A DNA stretch of 32,000 bases from Candidatus Heimdallarchaeota archaeon (GTDB taxonomy: Archaea > Asgardarchaeota > Heimdallarchaeia > Heimdallarchaeales > Kariarchaeaceae): positions 630,001-662,000 of the forward strand of contig JASBSB010000006.1 of assembly GCA_030149205.1 (NCBI GenBank), given 5' to 3'. Within the stretch, counting starts at the first letter, position 1. Each line of letters starts with the position of its first letter. Shown one piece after another: positions 352 to 29,109 of the stretch. The position numbers and the translations under genes are program-made. A model generated the notes under the pieces. It was not told the DNA's origin. It made no database searches and worked only from the letters and a program-made list of their open reading frames with translations.

Positions 352-1803
352 AGGAGGTGATCCATCTGCAGCTTCCGCTACAGATACCTTGTTACGACTT
401 CTGCCTTCTCACCTACAAATGCATCGTCCATGCCACGAAGGCATGTCCTCAACACAAGCAGACTCGAATGCAGCGACGGGCGGTGTGTGCAAGGAACAGG
501 GGCGTATTCAGGGCATCATACTGAAATGCCCTTACTACTCATTCCGCGTTCATGAGGACAATTACATTCCTCAATCCCAACTGAGACAGCGATTAAGGGT
601 TGGCGTCGTCTTTCGACGTTGCATCCTATTGCCACTGCCATTGTATGCCGCGTGTGGCCCTGTACATAAGGGGCATACTGACCTCGTCTAGACTTCACTT
701 TCATCTAGCTCATCGCTAGCGATCTTTACAAAGTTCCCAAACTTCCCTGAGGAATTGCTGGTAATTGTAAATGAAGGTCTCGCTCGTTAAACCAATTAAG
801 GTCACAACTCACGTCACGAGCTTGAACGGGCCATGCACCACCAACCTATACCTCCGGTAACTTCATCAAAGTGACCTTCATAAGTATAGGCGGCACAGGT
901 AAGATTTCCGGCGTTGAATCCAATTAAACCGCAGCATCCACGAGTTGCGGTATTCCCCCGCCAATTGCTTTAAGTTTCAATCTTGCGATCGTAATCCCCA
1001 AGCGACCCGTTTAATGCCTTCGCTGCAGCACCGGGTTCTAAGAACCCGACACTTAACGGGTATCGTTTACGGCACTTGACTACAGGGGTATCTAATCCCT
1101 TTTGCTCCCAAGGCTTAAAAGTCTGACCGTCAGATGTGTCCTAGAGTATCGCTTTCGCCACAGGTGGTCCAAATAAGATCTACGCATTTCACCGCTCCCT
1201 TATTTGTACCATACTCCTCTTCCACTCTCAAGAAACCACGTTTCACCACCGATTCAATCGTTGAGCGATTGATTTTGAGCAGTGACTATGATTTCCGGCT
1301 GCACTTGCTTTAGGCTCAGTATATCAGTCCTCTCGAAGAGACAGTTTTACCGCGGCTGCTGGCACTGTCCTTGCCCTCTTCTTTCTTTCTAACTTATCTA
1401 CAGTTAGCAACAGTTTCCCGTTAGAGAAACACTCTGTTTTACCTCATCACGATTTCTCGCATTGTGAAGTTTTCTCGTCTGCTGGACTCCGTAGAGGCTG
1501 GAACGTTATCTCAGTTTCCACCTGGCGGCTCCTCCGTTAAGAGCCGCTACCAATTATCACCTAGGTGAGCCACTACCTCACCTACAAGTTAATTGGGCGC
1601 AGTTTCATCCTACCTTGAGTGTTGGTCTTTTCCAAGTCTCCACACCTATAGAGTATTAGCCACAGGTTACCGTGATTATTCTCTGCAGTAGGGTAGATTA
1701 ACGACGTTTTACTCAGTTTTTCGCCAAGATAGTAAACTATCTTTGACTTGCATGACTTAGTATAAAACAGATAGAGGCCTGATCCATCAGCATCAAATGG
1801 TGT
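352..1803 (-). rRNA. rrs: 16S rRNA, archaeal, divergent, stand-alone
   Basis: 3' end AAGTCGTAACAAGG...GGATCACCTCCT (anti-SD); GTGCCAGCAGCCGCGGTAA; ATTAGATACCC; AATTGGATTCAACGCCGG (archaeal); TGCACACACCGCCCGTC; 5' helix 1 CCATT/GATGG. About 1450 nt; ends approximate to a few nt. Confidence 0.98.
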
Positions 1804-16678: not shown

Positions 16679-18433
16679 ATGTTATTAGGAACAACATTTG
16701 GATTGTTGTTTGCAATAATAACTGGCATCACTTTTGTCGTGTCAGCCTATACAAATTGGTCGCTAACGGTTGGAGCCGTGGTTATAAGTCCAGCAATAAT
16801 AGGTCTTGTATTAGCAGCTCTTTTTTTAACCATCCAATTCTTGGTTTCACCATGGATAATGGATCTTCAGTTGTCTTGGCTCTATAAAATTCATTGGGGT
16901 AACTTAGAAGTTCTACCTCCTGAAATGGCTGAAGCACTCCAGGGTGCAATGAATAAACATGGTTTTACCCTGGCAAAGATTGGAATAATTGAGGATGAGA
17001 CCCCTAATGCTTTTACCTATGGAAGATTTACAAAAAACGCAAGAATGGTTTTTACAAGAGGAATAATCACTCTTTTAGACCCTGAAGAGCGTGTTGCAGT
17101 TCTTGAACATGAGGTAGGCCATATAGTCAACAAAGATTTCATCTTTATGACATTGGCCCAAGCAATTCCACTCTTGTTGTATATGACTTATATTACCTCA
17201 AGGGAGGCAGGAGCACAGATGGCAAGAACATCGGATAATAACACCGCAAAGGGAATTGGTGCTGCATTTATAGGTGTCGCTGTGTTAAGTTTTATTTTTT
17301 ACTGGTTGTCTGAATATTTTGTTTACCTCTTATCTCGAACAAGAGAATACCTTGCAGATCATTTCAGTGTTTTTAACACGAACAATCCGAATGCACTCTC
17401 CTCTGCTCTCGTGAAAGTTGCATATGGATTGGTTCTTGCTGATGCAAATATCAAAAGAAGATTGAATGAAACTAAAGGTGATTCAAAGGAAAATAAAAAA
17501 GAAATCACACAGATGAAACGTAAACAAAACTTTTGGAAGGGAATGAAGGCCATGGGATTGGCTGATTCTAATACTGCAAGTAGCCTCGTAATGCAGGCAT
17601 ATGCTCGTTCACCAGAAGTTTCAGCCGATGCTGTTGCTGCTGCAGCTACCTGGGATTTAAGTACACCTTGGGCAAAGGTTGTGGAATTAACTAGCACACA
17701 TCCATTGACCGGAAAGAGGCTTGTAAATATTGATTCACTTGCAATTGAGCTTAATCTCCCTCAAAAATATCCTGCCTTAGGGTCTGTAAAACCAGAAGAA
17801 TCTTTGTGGGATGATTTTCTAATTGATATCTTTGTAATGTTTGCATCCTCGATTCTCTCATTAATTTTACTAGCAGGGATAGGAGCATTATCAACATTCT
17901 TCACCATTGGAAACCCATTCATTGGAGCAGGCGTGGGTGTGATTATTTTTACATTCCTGTACTATTGGAAGACGAACCTAACCTACCCTAACCTGAAAAA
18001 TTGGGATAACCCTTCTGTCTCCAAGAACACTGTCTTTGAGGCTGTTAGTTCAGTAGAAAGAGATGGATACATAAAAGCGTCACCAGTGAGATCTAAACCA
18101 ATTGTCCTTGAAGGAGTAATTATTGGAAAAGGAAATCCTGGGTATATGTTTTCTGAGGATTTTGTTATCCGTGATGAATCTGGCATTATGAAACTTGACA
18201 TACGATCGATTTTAGGAGGACTTGGTAATTTTATCAGCTCATTCAAAGTTGGATCATACATCGAGCAGAAAGCCAGAGTAGTAGGATGGTACCAGAGATC
18301 CATGATGCCTTATGTTATAGTCAACAAAGTCTACCTAGAGGATGGAAGAGTTGTTAAAATAAGACAAAGAGGATTACATCAATTCTATGTAGGATTATTA
18401 CTCGCAATTGGCTTAGTTTTATTAGTATTATAA
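16679..18433 (+). CDS. htpX: M48 zinc metalloprotease, HtpX-like, with long C-terminal extension
   Basis: PNAFTYG, VLEHEVGH (HExxH), SRTREYLADH, STHPLTGKR; extra ~230 aa with TM helices and a beta-rich domain. Confidence 0.9.
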   Translation: MLLGTTFGLLFAIITGITFVVSAYTNWSLTVGAVVISPAIIGLVLAALFLTIQFLVSPWIMDLQLSWLYKIHWGNLEVLPPEMAEALQGAMNKHGFTLAKIGIIEDETPNAFTYGRFTKNARMVFTRGIITLLDPEERVAVLEHEVGHIVNKDFIFMTLAQAIPLLLYMTYITSREAGAQMARTSDNNTAKGIGAAFIGVAVLSFIFYWLSEYFVYLLSRTREYLADHFSVFNTNNPNALSSALVKVAYGLVLADANIKRRLNETKGDSKENKKEITQMKRKQNFWKGMKAMGLADSNTASSLVMQAYARSPEVSADAVAAAATWDLSTPWAKVVELTSTHPLTGKRLVNIDSLAIELNLPQKYPALGSVKPEESLWDDFLIDIFVMFASSILSLILLAGIGALSTFFTIGNPFIGAGVGVIIFTFLYYWKTNLTYPNLKNWDNPSVSKNTVFEAVSSVERDGYIKASPVRSKPIVLEGVIIGKGNPGYMFSEDFVIRDESGIMKLDIRSILGGLGNFISSFKVGSYIEQKARVVGWYQRSMMPYVIVNKVYLEDGRVVKIRQRGLHQFYVGLLLAIGLVLLVL

Positions 18434-18507: not shown

Positions 18508-19077
18508 TTAGTTTTTAACTAATCTTCCCTGTAAATAGAAATCGACATAAGAACCAATTTCAATAGAGGGAAGTGTTTCATCTGGAATAATATTTTTTAG
18601 TATAACAGAATACAGTATTGAACCAAGGAGAGATAAAATTGTTCGAAATGGTAACTCTTTCTTTAAAACACCAGTATTTTGGTACTTCGATATTATCTTT
18701 GAAAAGTGAGTGAAATATGTTAGTGGTTCCTGTAATAATTCTTTTAAATTTGGATTATGAGAGATTTCTAAAAAAATATGAAAGAAAAAATATCCAAATT
18801 TAATAGCAGATTTCTGATAAACCAAAACTATGTTTGTCAGATCCTTCTTGACATCTCCAGAGTAATCTGGTAATTTACTAAAATGAGAATTTTTCACTGC
18901 ATAAGAAATTGATTGTTTGACTAATTGGGTCTTGCTCCCAAATCTGCGAAACAGAGTGACTTCACTGATATTTGCAGATTTTGCAATTTTTTTAGTGGTT
19001 GCACCCTGATACCCACTTAATCCTATCAATTTGATAACAGAGTTAAAAACTGCTTCATCCTTAACTATTTTTGGCAC
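18508..19077 (-). CDS. TetR/AcrR family transcriptional regulator
   Basis: GYQGATTKKIAKSANISEVTLFRRFGSKTQL helix-turn-helix signature; GTG start. Confidence 0.93.
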   Translation of the reverse strand: MPKIVKDEAVFNSVIKLIGLSGYQGATTKKIAKSANISEVTLFRRFGSKTQLVKQSISYAVKNSHFSKLPDYSGDVKKDLTNIVLVYQKSAIKFGYFFFHIFLEISHNPNLKELLQEPLTYFTHFSKIISKYQNTGVLKKELPFRTILSLLGSILYSVILKNIIPDETLPSIEIGSYVDFYLQGRLVKN

Positions 19078-19118
19078 TACCTAAACAATTGAGCGATCAT
19101 TGATATAGGTTTTTGTTA

Positions 19119-19138
19119 ATGCAAGTACATGCTAACAA
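19119..19138. promoter_or_regulatory. Degenerate second TetR-type operator
   Basis: ATGCAAGTA-CA-TGCTAACAA resembles the perfect site at 19157; both are preceded by GTTA. Confidence 0.6.
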
Positions 19139-19156
19139 AAGATTTTTATTTAGTTA

Positions 19157-19176
19157 ATGTAAGTAAGTACTTACAT
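19157..19176. promoter_or_regulatory. Perfect palindromic operator, probable TetR site
   Basis: ATGTAAGTA-AG-TACTTACAT, a 9-bp perfect inverted repeat with 2-nt spacer, just upstream of the AAGGAGG SD. Confidence 0.8.
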
Positions 19177-19191
19177 AAAGGAGGATATTAA

Positions 19192-19863
19192 TTGGTAAAT
19201 AGTCTAATTTTGCAATCCATCGGATTAGCATTCACAGGGTTGGTTTCATTGGGGTCAATAACAATTGTTCTTCTGCTCATACTCTCTAAGGATGGTTTTT
19301 ACAAGGGTCTCGGGTACACCTTGGGTTATTTTTTAGGATATGTGTTAATTGGAAACATTTTGATCGTTTTAAGTCTGTTTCTTCCTGTAAATTTTACTAA
19401 TCAAGTAAATTCGACTATACCCATATTCTTGTTGGCTCTAGGAACACTTCTTCTATTCTTAGGATTAAGAAATTTGAGAAGAGGGCCAAAGACATCTAAA
19501 GAGAACAAAGGATTTCTTTCTTCCTTAGATGGATTTAATTCTAGAAAGTCTTTCATGTTAGGAGCTGCAATCACTGTGATCAATGTTAAAAACCTTGCAC
19601 TTTATATGACAGCAATGTCTGGGATAATCCTAGTTCAGGTTGATATACTTGACAAAATTTTACTAACATTCCTCATTTCAATCATCTTTTGTATTGGTGT
19701 GTTTTTTCCAGTATTGATCTATCTAATGTTTCCAGAAAGTTCTGAAGTTAAACTTACTAGCTTTAAGGCATATTTAGATACACATAGTCACAAACTATCT
19801 ATTTACCTTCCAATCTTCTTCTCTTTCTTGCTTATATTTAAAGGAGTTACAGATCTACTATGA
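19192..19863 (+). CDS. GAP/Sap-family (LysE-like superfamily) membrane protein
   Basis: About 6 TM segments; LVSLGSITIVLLLILS..G..KGLGYTLGY and AAITVINVKNLALY match the GAP/SfLAP pattern; AAGGAGG SD; TTG start. Confidence 0.7.
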   Translation: MVNSLILQSIGLAFTGLVSLGSITIVLLLILSKDGFYKGLGYTLGYFLGYVLIGNILIVLSLFLPVNFTNQVNSTIPIFLLALGTLLLFLGLRNLRRGPKTSKENKGFLSSLDGFNSRKSFMLGAAITVINVKNLALYMTAMSGIILVQVDILDKILLTFLISIIFCIGVFFPVLIYLMFPESSEVKLTSFKAYLDTHSHKLSIYLPIFFSFLLIFKGVTDLL

Positions 19864-22526
19864 CAACAAAGTTACCATTAGTTTTAGATTTCGACCAAAT
19901 CAGGTCAAAAGATTTACCACTCGTAGGTGGAAAAGGAGCAAATTTGGGAGAAATGACTTACGCGGGATTTCCTGTTCCACCGGGTTTCTGCATAACAACC
20001 CTAGCTTACGATAATTTCATAGCAACCTCTGATCAATCCACTAGGATCTTTGATATTCTTAGTGACCTCTCTGTAGATAATTTAGATAAAATTAGAGAGG
20101 CAGGAAAAGAGGTTCGTGATTTGCTTAATATGGCATCATTTAGAGAAGAATTGCAATCTCCATTGCTAGAAGCCTGGAGGAGGTTAGGTTCTGAGCAAGT
20201 TTATGCCATACGATCAAGTGCAACAGCAGAGGATCTCCCAAATGCATCATTTGCAGGACAACAAGATACGTACCTAAATGTCATTGGTCAAGAACAGTTT
20301 TTGGAGTCAGTTAAAAAATGCTGGATATCTTTATTTACAGATAGAGCAATACTTTATCGAATAAAAAACAATTTTCCCCATGATAAGGTCAAATTAAGTG
20401 TGGTTGTACAAAAGATGATAAAATCCGAAAGATCGGGGATAATGTTCACTGCAAACCCTGTGACGGGGCATCGTCACACAATTCTGATTAATGCTAGCTA
20501 TGGGCTTGGAGAAGCACTTGTGAGTGGTTTGGTTAATCCGGATACTTACGAGTTTGATAAAAGAAAAACTCAGATTGTTGATGTGAAAATTTCCGACAAG
20601 AAGATTGGAATCTACCCCCTTAAAGATGGGGGAACGAAAGAGGTAGAACTATCTGAGGAGTTGCGAAACAAGCAGGTGTTATCTGATGAGGAAATATTAC
20701 AACTGGGATTGCTTGGTGTAAAAATAGAAGAATATTATAAGTCCCCCCAGGACATTGAATGGGCATCTGAATCGCAAAATTTGTACATTGTACAATCTAG
20801 GCCGATCACATCCCTATATCCTATAGATGGGTTAAAATACCCTGAAGGCACTCTGGGGATATTTTTTAGCTTTGGACATCAGCAAAACATGCTCCGAGCC
20901 ATGACCCCAATGAGTTTGTCTTCAATCACCACCTTTCTTCCAGTGGGTCATACTGAAAGCAAATATGAATCAGATTATGTCAGAATTAGTGGAGATAGGG
21001 CATTTTTAGATATAACAACAATGCTTAGACACCGAATTTTAAAGAAGATTGTATTGAGGGTGACTGGGCAAATGGATGCATTAGCCCCAAAATCTATCCA
21101 GATTCTTATGAAAAGACCAGAATTTAAAAAATCTCCTCGAGCAAAAATTCCAATTTCTACAGCCTTTCGAGGAATAAAACTTATCTTAAGAGTGGTCAAC
21201 GATATTTTCAGGAAAAACCTCTCAGGGTTTGTTGATAAAACCAATAGGGATATAGACATATTCCTCGATGAAGTTAGAGAAGAGATGAAAGGCTTACAGC
21301 CAGATATTAACCTTCTAAATTTGTGTGAGCAATATTTACAGAAAACACCCTCTTTCATGTTGAATTTTGTTCCTGAAGCATTTGCTGGGATTGCGTCAAC
21401 TAAGATCCTTGAGGGATATAGCAGGAAATGGTTAGATGACGCTACAGCAGGAAATATCAGTCTTGGGATAAGGGGTAATGTGGTTAATGAAATGAATTAT
21501 GCAATTGGAGATCTTGCTGATTTGCTTCGTGAATCACCCGAACTTTCGCGTTCAATTGAGACCCTCAATAATGACCCTTTTGATTGGTTAAATTCATTAG
21601 AATCCATCCAAGGAGGTCATGAGTTTCTAAATGCATGGCAAGAATTTATAGAAAGCTATGGTGCTCGTGGCCCTTCTGAACTAGATATATATAAGCCTAG
21701 ATGGTGGGAAGATCCTCTTCCAGTATTGAATGTGATTCGAGAATATATGAAAAAAGAGAAGGGAAGCCACAGAAAACAGGAAGCAGAATTTATTCAATTA
21801 CGAGAACAGGCATTTGATGAATTACTACTAAAAGCATCTAAGGGAATTCGAGGGAGATTTCGAAGAAGAAGGTATAGAAGACTCTATTTTGTAATGACTG
21901 AGGTTGGAGGAATGAGGGAACACCATAAATTTATGATGATCCGTTTAATTTCGTTAGTGAAAAAATCACTTCTTCGAATTGGAAATAGCCTTGTAGAATC
22001 AGGAAAATTAAAGGAAATCGACGATCTTTGGTTTTTAAAATGGGGAGAATTGGTTCAGGTACTTGAAGGTTCAACTATTGATCGAAATGAAGAAATTAAG
22101 CAGAGAAAAATAGATTACAACAGGTATCAAAGCTTGATTCCACCAGCTATCATTAGTAGTGACGGAGAATCACCAGAAGTTAACTATGAAATTGCAGATG
22201 CCCCTGAAGGTGCATTACTTGGAAATCCTGTTTCTGGAGGAGTAATTGAAGGGATAGCTCACGTCATTAGAGATCCAACAACAGAATCACTGAAAATGGA
22301 TGAGGTTTTGGTTGCTGAATTCACCGACCCGGGTTGGACTCCATTATTTATCAATGCAAAAGGTTTGATACTTGAAATTGGTGGTGCTTTAACCCACGGT
22401 GCCGTAGTTGCAAGGGAGTATGGCATACCTGCTGTAGTAGGTGTAAAGAATGCAACGTCCCTCATTAAAACAGGACAAAAGGTTCGAGTGGATGGAAATA
22501 CAGGAATAGTTGAAATTTTGGAATAA
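19860..22526 (+). CDS. Rifampicin-phosphotransferase-like (Rph/PigC architecture) ATP-dependent dikinase
   Basis: N-terminal ATP-grasp (VGGKGANLGEM, IRSSATAEDLPNASFAGQQDTYLNV, QDIEWA, VQSRPIT); central domain with GHQQ, YGARGPSELDI and REHHKF; C-terminal phospho-His swivel (GGALTHGAVVAREYGIPAVVG); no C-terminal PEP-binding barrel. ATGA overlap with the upstream gene. Confidence 0.88.
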   Translation: MTTKLPLVLDFDQIRSKDLPLVGGKGANLGEMTYAGFPVPPGFCITTLAYDNFIATSDQSTRIFDILSDLSVDNLDKIREAGKEVRDLLNMASFREELQSPLLEAWRRLGSEQVYAIRSSATAEDLPNASFAGQQDTYLNVIGQEQFLESVKKCWISLFTDRAILYRIKNNFPHDKVKLSVVVQKMIKSERSGIMFTANPVTGHRHTILINASYGLGEALVSGLVNPDTYEFDKRKTQIVDVKISDKKIGIYPLKDGGTKEVELSEELRNKQVLSDEEILQLGLLGVKIEEYYKSPQDIEWASESQNLYIVQSRPITSLYPIDGLKYPEGTLGIFFSFGHQQNMLRAMTPMSLSSITTFLPVGHTESKYESDYVRISGDRAFLDITTMLRHRILKKIVLRVTGQMDALAPKSIQILMKRPEFKKSPRAKIPISTAFRGIKLILRVVNDIFRKNLSGFVDKTNRDIDIFLDEVREEMKGLQPDINLLNLCEQYLQKTPSFMLNFVPEAFAGIASTKILEGYSRKWLDDATAGNISLGIRGNVVNEMNYAIGDLADLLRESPELSRSIETLNNDPFDWLNSLESIQGGHEFLNAWQEFIESYGARGPSELDIYKPRWWEDPLPVLNVIREYMKKEKGSHRKQEAEFIQLREQAFDELLLKASKGIRGRFRRRRYRRLYFVMTEVGGMREHHKFMMIRLISLVKKSLLRIGNSLVESGKLKEIDDLWFLKWGELVQVLEGSTIDRNEEIKQRKIDYNRYQSLIPPAIISSDGESPEVNYEIADAPEGALLGNPVSGGVIEGIAHVIRDPTTESLKMDEVLVAEFTDPGWTPLFINAKGLILEIGGALTHGAVVAREYGIPAVVGVKNATSLIKTGQKVRVDGNTGIVEILE

Positions 22527-27786: not shown

Positions 27787-29109
27787 CTAAAGCTTTTCAT
27801 ATACCTCTTTTAAGAGACTATATGCTTCTTCCCTGGTCTCTCCCCAAACTATTAACCCATCCTGATGACCAAGGAGACAGACAGGTTTGGTGAGTTTAGG
27901 ACTATCAGTGTACACTTTTTGTATGGCTCTAGCCATTTCTGGTGTCCCATAAGGAACCTCCTTGGGAGTTGTCAACATGTTAAACTCGGAGTACCTGTCC
28001 CACATATCCTCATAGTGAACATGTATTACACAGTTTACCTCTGGAGCAACATCATAGATTGCCGCATGAGTCATTGATTCAGAGGAGGGTTTTAATGGAC
28101 CCTTAGAAATAACACGATTATTCGCTACATCAAAATCCATTACCAGACAGTAGTCTTCAAAATTGGTTTTATCAAGGTGTCCCGTTTGAGTGCCAGAGAC
28201 AAAAAACTGTCCATCATCAGTGTAACGCTCACTTATGTTGCCAAACCCTATATTAGGCGTTCTGGAATGATCGGCTGGATAAACCCCAATCAGGTTCATT
28301 TTATGTAGTTTATCTCTAAGCTTTATCATCTCATCAAGGTATCCCGGTGAAATTTTTAAATTCTTTTTGTGATACTGCAACTCATACTTAATTACTCCAT
28401 CCAGAGGTTCTGAATTGAACTCTTTTAAAACTTCAAAAATTTCTGAAAACTGTGTTATACTATGCTTTGCAGAATGTTCTTTATTTCCTTCTATTTCAAC
28501 TAATATACCTTCCATTCCAAGAAACTCTGTCACCTCAATATCATGCTCCCAACTGTCTCCCACCATTATCGCTTCGAATGGTTTAACATCTAGTCTGTCT
28601 AGGGCATGAAGATAAATATGGGGATGAGGTTTCTCTTTGCCTGCCTCCTCACTGGTGATGACCACTTCAAAGAAATTGTCCAAATTCAATCTATGGAGTT
28701 TTCTAAATTGTATTTCTGATGACATATTTGTTATTATCCCAAGTTTATAGTAAGAATCTTTTAACTGTTGTAACGTTTCAACGACCCCATCAAATGGTTT
28801 AATGCTCCTGAGAAAAGCATCCCAATACCTTTGTGTCAATTCAGCTATATGAAAAGGCTTTGAGGATTTATAATATTCCTCTACCATGGCTTGAAAGTAT
28901 AACACTCTTGAATGACTTCCAGAGGTTCCCTCTAAGAATCTTTTTACCCTTTGTCTTCCATTTTTATATCGGCGAATAAAGTCAGGATAAGACTCATTGG
29001 TTAAAACCTGCCAATAATCATATGCCCCTCTCAGTCCCTCCTCGTGTGAGGTGCTATAGGAATATAATGTACCATCCAAATCAAAAAAGATGGTTGTGAT
29101 TTTATGCAT
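27787..29109 (-). CDS. HAD-IA phosphatase fused to class II aldolase/adducin-family domain
   Basis: N-terminal FFDLDGTLY, GIITN, GKEKPHP, VGDSWEHD; C-terminal DGVIKY, GFGNISER, PSSESMTHAAIY, VIHVH, GHQDG. Confidence 0.9.
   Translation of the reverse strand: MHKITTIFFDLDGTLYSYSTSHEEGLRGAYDYWQVLTNESYPDFIRRYKNGRQRVKRFLEGTSGSHSRVLYFQAMVEEYYKSSKPFHIAELTQRYWDAFLRSIKPFDGVVETLQQLKDSYYKLGIITNMSSEIQFRKLHRLNLDNFFEVVITSEEAGKEKPHPHIYLHALDRLDVKPFEAIMVGDSWEHDIEVTEFLGMEGILVEIEGNKEHSAKHSITQFSEIFEVLKEFNSEPLDGVIKYELQYHKKNLKISPGYLDEMIKLRDKLHKMNLIGVYPADHSRTPNIGFGNISERYTDDGQFFVSGTQTGHLDKTNFEDYCLVMDFDVANNRVISKGPLKPSSESMTHAAIYDVAPEVNCVIHVHYEDMWDRYSEFNMLTTPKEVPYGTPEMARAIQKVYTDSPKLTKPVCLLGHQDGLIVWGETREEAYSLLKEVYEKL

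Follow-up and report, generated by a model that had tools for sequence, protein, structure and literature searches.

A TetR, SfLAP and Rph-family dikinase cassette with a conserved predicted operator in Chloroflexota and a few Asgard archaea

We analysed a 32,000-nt stretch of DNA, hereafter called the window, from Candidatus Heimdallarchaeota archaeon (GenBank assembly GCA_030149205.1, contig JASBSB010000006.1, positions 630,001 to 662,000). It harbours three neighbouring genes coding for a TetR-family regulator, a small membrane protein of the SfLAP (or GAP) family and a large enzyme related to rifampicin phosphotransferase (RPH or Rph), here referred to together as the cassette. A prediction made from the sequence alone had described a divergent tetR, a GAP-family gene and, joined to the latter by an ATGA overlap, a gene for an 888-residue enzyme, and all of these lie where it had placed them. 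The features are listed below, with RPH-Lm denoting the structurally characterized Listeria RPH.

18508 to 19077, minus strand: tetR, 189 aa, GTG start; PF00440 match of 40.2 bits (cut-off 24)
19120 to 19137, no strand assigned: predicted operator O2, degenerate, TGCAAGTACATGCTAACA, with 2 mismatches to TGTWAGT-N4-ACTWACA
19143 to 19152, plus strand: TATA-like A/T-rich element, TTTTTATTTA, read from the sequence
19158 to 19175, no strand assigned: predicted operator O1, a perfect 18-bp palindrome, TGTAAGTAAGTACTTACA
19192 to 19863, plus strand: SfLAP/GAP membrane gene, 223 aa, TTG start after GGAGG; PF11139 match of 77.8 bits (cut-off 35)
19860 to 22526, plus strand: Rph-family small-molecule dikinase, 888 aa, assigned by Pfam matches and a full-length alignment with RPH-Lm
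20949 to 20984, plus strand: 12-residue insertion, aa 364-375 of the dikinase, HTESKYESDYVR, within the segment that forms the naphthoquinone cradle in RPH-Lm

The SfLAP stop and the dikinase start share the letters 'ctactATGAcaaca' at 19860-19863. The dikinase is composed of an ATP-grasp domain (PPDK_N, PF01326, aa 20-318, 354 bits), an Rph-type central substrate domain (PF27448, Rph_4th, in the precomputed annotation) and a PEP-utilizers swivel domain (PF00391, aa 814-882, 84 bits) that contains His846, and its alignment with RPH-Lm (5hv1/5fbs; E 2e-177) spans the full length. The GHQQ (aa 339-342) and RE (686-687) motifs and the segment TTFLPVGHTESKYESDY (357-373) picked out by the original prediction were all found in it. 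In RPH-Lm, the essential residues are K22, R117, T136 and E297 in the ATP site, Q336/Q337, R666/E667 and K670 in the phosphate site, and His825 (PMC4844700). The corresponding set of the cassette enzyme is K25, R118, T137, E300, Q341, Q342, R686, E687, K690 and H846. As the residues of the ATP site, the phosphate site and the swivel His are those of RPH, a dikinase chemistry is expected, with ATP giving AMP, Pi and a phosphorylated substrate. These residues are 96-100% conserved among 131 members of the clade described below, and they are kept in all six rows of its archaeal subclade (the window and five others).

Such conservation, which concerns both half-reactions, argues against a purely regulatory protein resembling PspR. 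The latter is an archaeal RPH-like protein of Haloferax that is reported to bind DNA, to repress phaRP and to form no phosphorylated rifampicin (RIF-P) (PMC10948481). The cassette already has a dedicated TetR and a conserved operator, and the Haloferacaceae belong to clades distinct from the validated RPH clade in the phylogeny of Stogios et al. (PMC4844700), the Haloferax protein itself not being among the rows of the tree built here. We thus regard a PspR-like role as highly improbable.

The original prediction had also anticipated that annotation pipelines would take the enzyme for phosphoenolpyruvate (PEP) synthase (ppsA). Relatives are indeed publicly named 'phosphoenolpyruvate synthase', 'pyruvate, water dikinase' or 'rifampicin phosphotransferase', and one 'phosphoenolpyruvate synthase' subfamily model, NF004878, was barely passed (951.9 for a cut-off of 945). 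This model is centred on a Paenibacillus Rph-like group, which scores 1239, and therefore does not define the cassette clade. The PEP/pyruvate-binding domain PF02896 gave no match in the cassette dikinase, the His domain is C-terminal rather than central, and the PpsA equivalog models failed (TIGR01418, 445 versus 740; NF005057, 464 versus 598). Furthermore, a canonical dikinase with PPDK_N, mobile and PEP-utilizers_C (PF02896) domains is encoded elsewhere in the genome, on contig C4. The equivalog models of the prodiginine ligases PigC and RedH also failed, with 410 bits for a cut-off of 1300 and 403 for 1350; two stretches were matched, the best-scoring one being the ATP-grasp part (aa 17-319). 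Judged by domain order, motifs and profile scores, the cassette enzyme is an Rph-family dikinase and not a PEP synthase, in agreement with what had been proposed, and the chance that the ppsA label is right appears negligible.

Two other proteins of the same genome have related domains. The first, encoded on contig C7 (C7:374410-377025; L023:1465-4119, plus strand), is an 884-aa Rph-like paralogue that shares 34% identity with the cassette enzyme. Its gene has a Fer4_5 gene upstream and neither a TetR nor an SfLAP gene beside it, and the protein clusters with a homologue (L019) of a different genus in the family. The second, on contig C2 (C2:429145-432180; L003:907-3942, minus strand), is an unusual 1011-aa fusion of a response-regulator receiver domain, DUF5752 and PPDK_N, in which no swivel-His domain was detected.

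The neighbourhoods of related dikinases were surveyed at 80 genome loci, with dikinase identities of 35-52%. The trio, in the order tetR (minus), SfLAP (plus) and dikinase (plus), recurs in unrelated flanks at loci L010, L011, L015, L127, L026, L094 and L020. L010 is from a genome of the same genus (G001; L017 is the same locus, and L016 is the window), L011 from a metagenome-assembled genome (MAG) labelled Heimdallarchaeota at NCBI, and L020 from a partial contig of another same-genus genome, while L026 and L094 are from Chloroflexota MAGs. At five further loci (L012, L024, L025, L027 and L028), SfLAP and dikinase genes are present and tetR was undetected. At nearly all loci, the last 4 bp of SfLAP lie within the dikinase gene. 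Across the survey, SfLAP genes are adjacent only to enzymes of at least 46% identity; among those at 41-44%, a co-directional TetR gene is frequent and SfLAP was undetected, and directly upstream of the enzyme in the validated-type Rph clade (38 loci) there is neither a TetR nor an SfLAP gene.

A tree of 89 rows placed the SfLAP-linked enzymes in one clade with full support in the SH-aLRT (Shimodaira-Hasegawa-like approximate likelihood ratio test; 100), 11 of its 12 rows having SfLAP. The distribution of the SfLAP label on this tree requires 2 changes, versus a mean of 10.5 after shuffling, and none of 500 shuffles was as low. In the twelfth row, Litorilinea (L013), tetR and the operator are still present, and of SfLAP a frameshifted stub of the initial ~35 codons is left, which indicates that SfLAP was lost secondarily. 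Thus, the co-conservation that the original prediction had called for is borne out both by the trio in unrelated flanks and by the single SfLAP-linked clade. Our searches of a limited literature set for a linkage between SfLAP/DUF2910 and Rph yielded nothing relevant.

Two variants of the arrangement deserve mention. The Litorilinea aerophila stub (L013:4860-4990) lies between the operator and the dikinase start and makes this locus a natural SfLAP-less cassette. Downstream of the cassette, at L015:4026-6027 and L127:6001-7909, lies a pair of co-directional genes with no Pfam match, whose products are 411/381 aa and 241/226 aa long. In L015, the gene nearer the dikinase overlaps the dikinase stop, and both genes may be extra cassette members in that lineage.

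The closest relatives of the cassette enzyme, at 41-44% identity, are found in two TetR-linked Rph-like clades, one of Paenibacillus and Vulcanibacillus and the other of Rhizobiaceae, Promineifilaceae, Trueperaceae and Myxococcota. They share with the cassette the cradle insertion and the accompanying TetR-family gene. Unlike that of the cassette, their TetR gene is co-directional and directly upstream, and its product is only 13-20% identical to the cassette TetR; neither the SfLAP gene nor the TGTWAGT-N4-ACTWACA operator of the cassette was found with them. In one group of these neighbouring clades, the TetR proteins (L029:3216-3965, L036:3194-3967, L044:3144-3944 and L047:1140-1940) are ~250-266 aa long and contain two consecutive TetR-type helix-turn-helix segments.

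The GTG start assigned to tetR aligns with the Met of its orthologues. These are 34-40% identical and are encoded divergently upstream of SfLAP, or of its remnant, in L010, L011, L015, L026, L094 and L013. In the window, O1 ends 4 nt before the GGAGG sequence (19180-19184) and 16 nt before the TTG start of SfLAP. O2 is on the tetR side of the spacer, with the TATA-like run between the two sites. The TGTWAGT-N4-ACTWACA sequence occurs once in the 3.3-Mb genome, for 0.16 occurrences expected, and this single occurrence suggests that TetR is a dedicated local regulator. Furthermore, it is present in the regulator spacer (tetR/SfLAP or tetR/rph) in all seven tetR-bearing arrangements of the clade that were read, from archaea and bacteria (L010, L011, L013, L015, L020, L026 and L094, or eight identifiers with L014, which repeats L013). 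In four of the seven (L011, L015, L026 and L094), a second copy is found at a similar spacing. For the neighbouring TetR-linked clades, no such site was detected in a sensible position at up to 2 mismatches. The co-regulation of the three genes assumed in the original prediction is therefore supported by a predicted operator that is conserved in the tetR/SfLAP spacers.

The surroundings of the operator differ between hosts. TATA-like runs are found just upstream of it in L010 and L011 as in the window, and transcription would start inside O1, as predicted from the TATA-like element. At the Chloroflexota loci, the operator contains TTGACT, followed by TATCAT 17 nt later. The operator thus seems to have been retained, with a promoter that matches the respective host. 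Comparison of the TetR profile with solved structures returned generic TetR matches only (Mce3R, HapR/LuxR-type proteins and others), which provide no clue to the ligand.

Among known systems, RPH is one of the closest to the enzyme (RPH-Lm; PDB 5FBS/5FBT/5FBU and 5HV1; EC 2.7.9.6). The two have the three-domain order and the catalytic residues in common, and they differ in clade, profile score, cradle, the REHHKF and VVxEMN blocks and the archaeal host of the cassette. At the 38 true-Rph loci examined, there was no linked TetR or SfLAP, in contrast with the cassette enzyme, which has both. The Rph equivalog model NF041857 gave 711.6 for a cut-off of 999, which is not attained, with 690-763 for other clade members and 1481 for a Bacillus thuringiensis Rph; NF000283 gave 519.9 for a cut-off of 1700. 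On the 89-row tree, the dikinase is outside the clade of the validated Rph enzymes, which are known from Bacillus, Listeria and Streptomyces; this clade comprises 39 rows from Bacillus, Nocardia and Streptomyces and stands apart. Around the catalytic Arg-Glu pair, it reads REHHKF where Rph reads REYPKY, and a VVxEMN block replaces the ITxxMG of Rph.

The original prediction had singled out a divergent pocket segment, which we compared with the residues of the Listeria RPH structure. The residues of RPH-Lm that contact rifamycin were taken from a structural study in which the naphthoquinone cradle corresponds to the segment Y351-V368 (PMC4844700). In the pairwise alignment, the cradle contacts Y351, T354, P356, A357, M359, V368 and L387 become I356, F359, P361, V362, K368, L383 and T402. 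The multiple alignment places one insertion of 12 residues in the cradle, and the pairwise alignment places insertions of 4 and 6 residues. Within this stretch, the alignment is uncertain. In the multiple alignment, none of the 38 true-Rph rows has the insertion, which occurs in the SfLAP-linked clade and in the two TetR-linked neighbour clades. Thus, the pocket does diverge from that of Rph through an insertion and several substitutions, as had been noticed, but this divergence is shared with neighbouring bacterial clades and is not specific to the cassette. We propose that a pocket so unlike that of RPH accommodates a substrate other than a rifamycin.

These data also bear on the alternative that the enzyme is a rifamycin or ansamycin phosphotransferase, in which case the cassette would be a true resistance module in Chloroflexota, of little or no use once carried into an archaeon. 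The complete RPH architecture with all catalytic residues would fit, as would the retention of Gln341/Gln342, Arg686/Glu687 and Lys690 and of hydrophobic residues at positions 500-501; some relatives are named 'rifampicin phosphotransferase' by JGI, and Stogios et al. predict that rifamycin activity is possible in clades adjoining the validated one (PMC4844700). Conversely, the score of 711.6 is below the curated Rph cut-off, the enzyme is outside the validated clade, and its cradle has both the insertion and substitutions at RPH-Lm positions Y351, T354, A357, M359, V368 and L387. Two homologues from outside clade A, the validated one, proved inactive when tested: one from C. difficile conferred no rifampicin (RIF) resistance (PMC4844700), and Haloferax PspR made no RIF-P (PMC10948481). 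The history of the archaeal copies is relevant as well. They are intact across lineages that have diverged to 47% identity in the flanking GH31 gene. Archaeal RNA polymerase is not a rifampicin target, and yet no fewer than six divergent rows of the archaeal subclade have kept the cassette intact. Taken together, these points make a rifamycin kinase an unlikely alternative.

The SfLAP match covers positions 3-212 of the 213 of the PF11139 model, and the length of the protein, 223 aa, is within the family range of ~180-290 aa. Its AlphaFold2 model (mean predicted local distance difference test score, pLDDT, 82.6) is all-helical, with nine helical segments including long hydrophobic helices. The motifs GS(I/M)T, GYxxxY and NxKN are conserved (alignment A2), and the protein is the sole SfLAP of the genome. 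A word-based search gave just 8 relatives, and an exhaustive profile search was used instead. The GAP family (TC 2.A.116), with six helices in a 3+3 layout, is part of the LysE superfamily, in which exporters predominate (PMC4608589). A prediction of the complex between SfLAP and residues 320-888 of the dikinase scored 0.00, which speaks neither for nor against an interaction.

The direction of transport matters for a second alternative, in which SfLAP would import a phenolic or similar compound that the dikinase traps by phosphorylation, with TetR as a catabolic repressor. HpeHI, a split RPH homologue, phosphorylates phenolics at sub-micromolar Km values, and trapping has been proposed for it (PMC12167813). 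A comparable mode of action has been suggested for its two-component relatives CreHI and phenylphosphate synthase. HpeHI, CreHI and the phenylphosphate synthase PpsAB share with the cassette enzyme the ATP-grasp domain, the RPH-type substrate domain and swivel-His chemistry on small hydroxylated molecules. TetR control of catabolic operons is also common. However, those enzymes are made of two polypeptides encoded in catabolic operons with carboxylases or phosphatases and have no SfLAP partner, whereas the cassette enzyme is fused and of RPH length. No carboxylase, phosphatase or other catabolic gene is conserved beside the cassette, the flanks being different at every locus. Moreover, the carriers of the LysE superfamily, among them GAP, are described as moving substrates from the inside out, one metal-uptake family excepted (PMC4608589). 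Uptake and trapping is thus rather improbable in our estimation. MarK, considered as a possible single-chain aromatic kinase relative, was ruled out, as it is an unrelated UPF0261 protein (PMC12624787).

A third alternative is that the cassette acts on a molecule of the cell itself, such as an envelope or membrane lipid, a glycolipid or a signal, which SfLAP would deliver to the surface in the way reported for mycobacterial Gap and Sap. The mycobacterial Gap/Sap proteins (TC 2.A.116) are members of the same Pfam family and of the LysE superfamily and, at ~225 aa, have the length of the cassette SfLAP. The only PF11139/GAP members that have been studied act on glycopeptidolipids and sulfolipid-1 (PMC4608589), and the tight translational coupling of the two genes suggests a matched dosage. 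The cassette SfLAP is nonetheless a distant family match (77.8 bits), its context gives no hint of glycolipid synthesis, its partner is a soluble dikinase, and no lipid-synthesis genes are linked. The cassette is also patchy (SfLAP in 3 of 400 genomes of the phylum, its dikinase type in 4 of 41 relatives), it has spread between phyla with very different envelopes, and it has a dedicated ligand-type repressor. This patchiness, the cross-phylum spread and the dedicated repressor fit an accessory response better than envelope building, and we consider a role on an endogenous molecule improbable.

The host of the cassette is archaeal, with an archaeal small-subunit rRNA gene at 352-1803 (minus strand, 1198 bits). 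The flanks consist of ordinary genes, for an M48 peptidase, a GH31 glycosidase, an amidase, ATP-binding cassette (ABC) transporter components and oxidoreductases. No mobile-element markers were annotated there in the window, and the G+C content of the cassette does not differ from that of its surroundings. The DNA of the window is also present in a sediment metagenome, possibly its source, and in part in a hydrothermal-vent metagenome.

Two neighbouring genes are unusual in themselves. The M48/HtpX-like peptidase (16679-18433, plus strand) is 584 aa long, about twice the usual length, and has a long C-terminal extension with additional hydrophobic stretches. The ORF at 27787-29109 (minus strand) fuses a HAD hydrolase (aa 4-203) with a class II aldolase (aa 288-436).

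At 48% identity or more, the cassette clade has at least 126 representatives, mainly from Chloroflexota. Apart from the archaea, its named members are Chloroflexota (Anaerolineae, Caldilineae, Promineifilaceae and Litorilinea), one Spirochaetia and one Bacteroidetes MAG. Closer to the host, dikinase matches at E <= 1e-50 were found in 7 of 41 relatives, the window genome included. The cassette's own dikinase type (50-57% identity) is present in four of the 41 (G000, G001, G002 and G007), and G006, G011 and G015 have only a paralogue at 30-38% identity; the window genome has such a paralogue in addition. Among 400 genomes of the phylum, SfLAP exceeds its cut-off in just three, all of them species of the window's genus. 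The system was originally presented as a module of an archaeon; it is indeed present there but not special to it, being mainly a Chloroflexota cassette.

The dikinase of the window and its same-genus orthologue are 53% identical. We considered independent acquisitions within the genus and rejected them, since divergence is equal or greater in the flanking genes (GH31, 47%; M48, 29%), which makes the 53% identity unremarkable. The archaeal-type subclade comprises the window, P0006, P0012, P0019, P0098 and P0111, with an SH-aLRT support of 100. A quick tree of 135 rows nested it among Chloroflexota. However, the approximately unbiased (AU) test did not reject a sister relation of this subclade to all other members (p-AU 0.685), the constrained tree having the higher likelihood. 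We therefore do not claim that the archaeal sequences are nested, and the direction of transfer is not proven. Nevertheless, the next outgroups are bacterial, and the cassette is rare in the phylum of the host and common in Chloroflexota. These features make a bacterial origin likely, Chloroflexota being the most likely source; the bacterial derivation suggested in the original prediction is thus plausible. Archaeal and bacterial members resemble each other in pocket segment and operator, which suggests the same class of ligand in both.

On balance, we favour, with some reserve, the view that the cassette works as an inducible module, by which a small molecule other than a rifamycin is phosphorylated and exported. 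The observations behind this view are the gene order, the co-conservation, the operator, the intact catalytic set, the non-Rph pocket and the non-PpsA nature of the enzyme. The repression, the inducer, the substrate chemistry, the transport direction and the detoxifying role are what we infer, as follows. Without inducer, a TetR dimer would sit on O1, in the start region of the SfLAP-dikinase transcript, and more weakly on O2 towards its own gene. A small hydrophobic ligand would free the repressor from the DNA. The dikinase would then load His846 of its swivel domain from ATP, yielding AMP and Pi, and the phosphate would pass to a hydroxyl group of the small molecule bound in the central domain, as in RPH. 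The co-translated SfLAP, as a LysE-superfamily carrier, would expel the compound or its phospho-product. As a net outcome, a toxic natural product or xenobiotic encountered in anoxic sediments would be inactivated and exported on induction. A more specific version, in which the cassette protects against a natural product toxic to Chloroflexota and Asgard archaea alike in such sediments, i.e. a cross-domain toxin with a universal target, is doubtful at present.

Several observations weigh against the proposal of an inducible phosphorylation and export module. No RNA was among the sequencing runs listed for the window DNA. The phosphate-binding residues of RPH-Lm are kept (Q336/Q337) and the changes at several of its hydrophobic contacts are conservative (L478 to M, F479 to L), so that the enzyme may act on rifamycins or other ansamycins. 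We know of no direct precedent for a LysE-type carrier that expels an anionic phospho-product, and SfLAP might transport the unmodified compound or act as an importer. A search of the PDB with the SfLAP model gave no fold match at E <= 0.001. Distant SfLAP proteins (99-165 bits with the subfamily profile) are not linked to dikinases; as they occur in other contexts, the link belongs to this subfamily and not to SfLAP proteins generally. Litorilinea (L013) manages without SfLAP. Lastly, tetR and operator were both undetected in the flank read at L012, L024 and L028, and L025 and L027 have an operator-like site at 2 mismatches with no strong TetR detected.

The closest functional analogue of the cassette is the mphA-mrx-mphR cluster. 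Its logic is that of the cassette, its small mobile unit combining a repressor and a membrane protein with a phosphotransferase for an antibiotic. MphR is an antibiotic-binding TetR-family repressor, and Mrx is a hydrophobic membrane protein that does not belong to the LysE superfamily. None of the three proteins is homologous to those of the cassette, and the gene order and the operator differ. Mph(A) is an APH-type kinase that produces ADP or GDP, in contrast with the swivel-His dikinase of the cassette. The cluster inactivates macrolides in Enterobacteria (PMC7690851). The 'undescribed system' of the original prediction thus holds for the linkage, which was not found in the literature searched, whereas the combination of a repressor, a membrane protein and a kinase has a known counterpart.

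What is new here, as far as sequence comparisons go, is a clade of RPH-family dikinases defined by its TetR, operator and SfLAP context and found in Chloroflexota and a few Asgard archaea. To our knowledge, the substrates of RPH-family enzymes are limited to rifamycins, prodiginine assembly and phenolics. The family is a large, unexplored group of small-molecule dikinases (Stogios et al. 2016, PMC4844700). A well-delimited clade, with at least 126 members mostly from Anaerolineae-type Chloroflexota along with a few Asgard archaea, and with its own sensor and 18-bp operator, provides a handle on the substrate. If the more specific version with a cross-domain toxin is correct, TetR and its operator could constitute a ready biosensor for fishing the compound out of sediment extracts. 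The database names given to these genes, PEP synthase and rifampicin phosphotransferase, are probably both wrong, with consequences for the reconstruction of metabolism and for resistome counts from sediment metagenomes. The cassette is also a clean case of a regulator-operator-operon unit common to bacteria and Asgard archaea. If the version with a cross-domain toxin holds, a bacterial unit for sensing, inactivating and exporting a compound would have been re-fitted, operator included, to an archaeal TATA-type promoter, and would still be working there.

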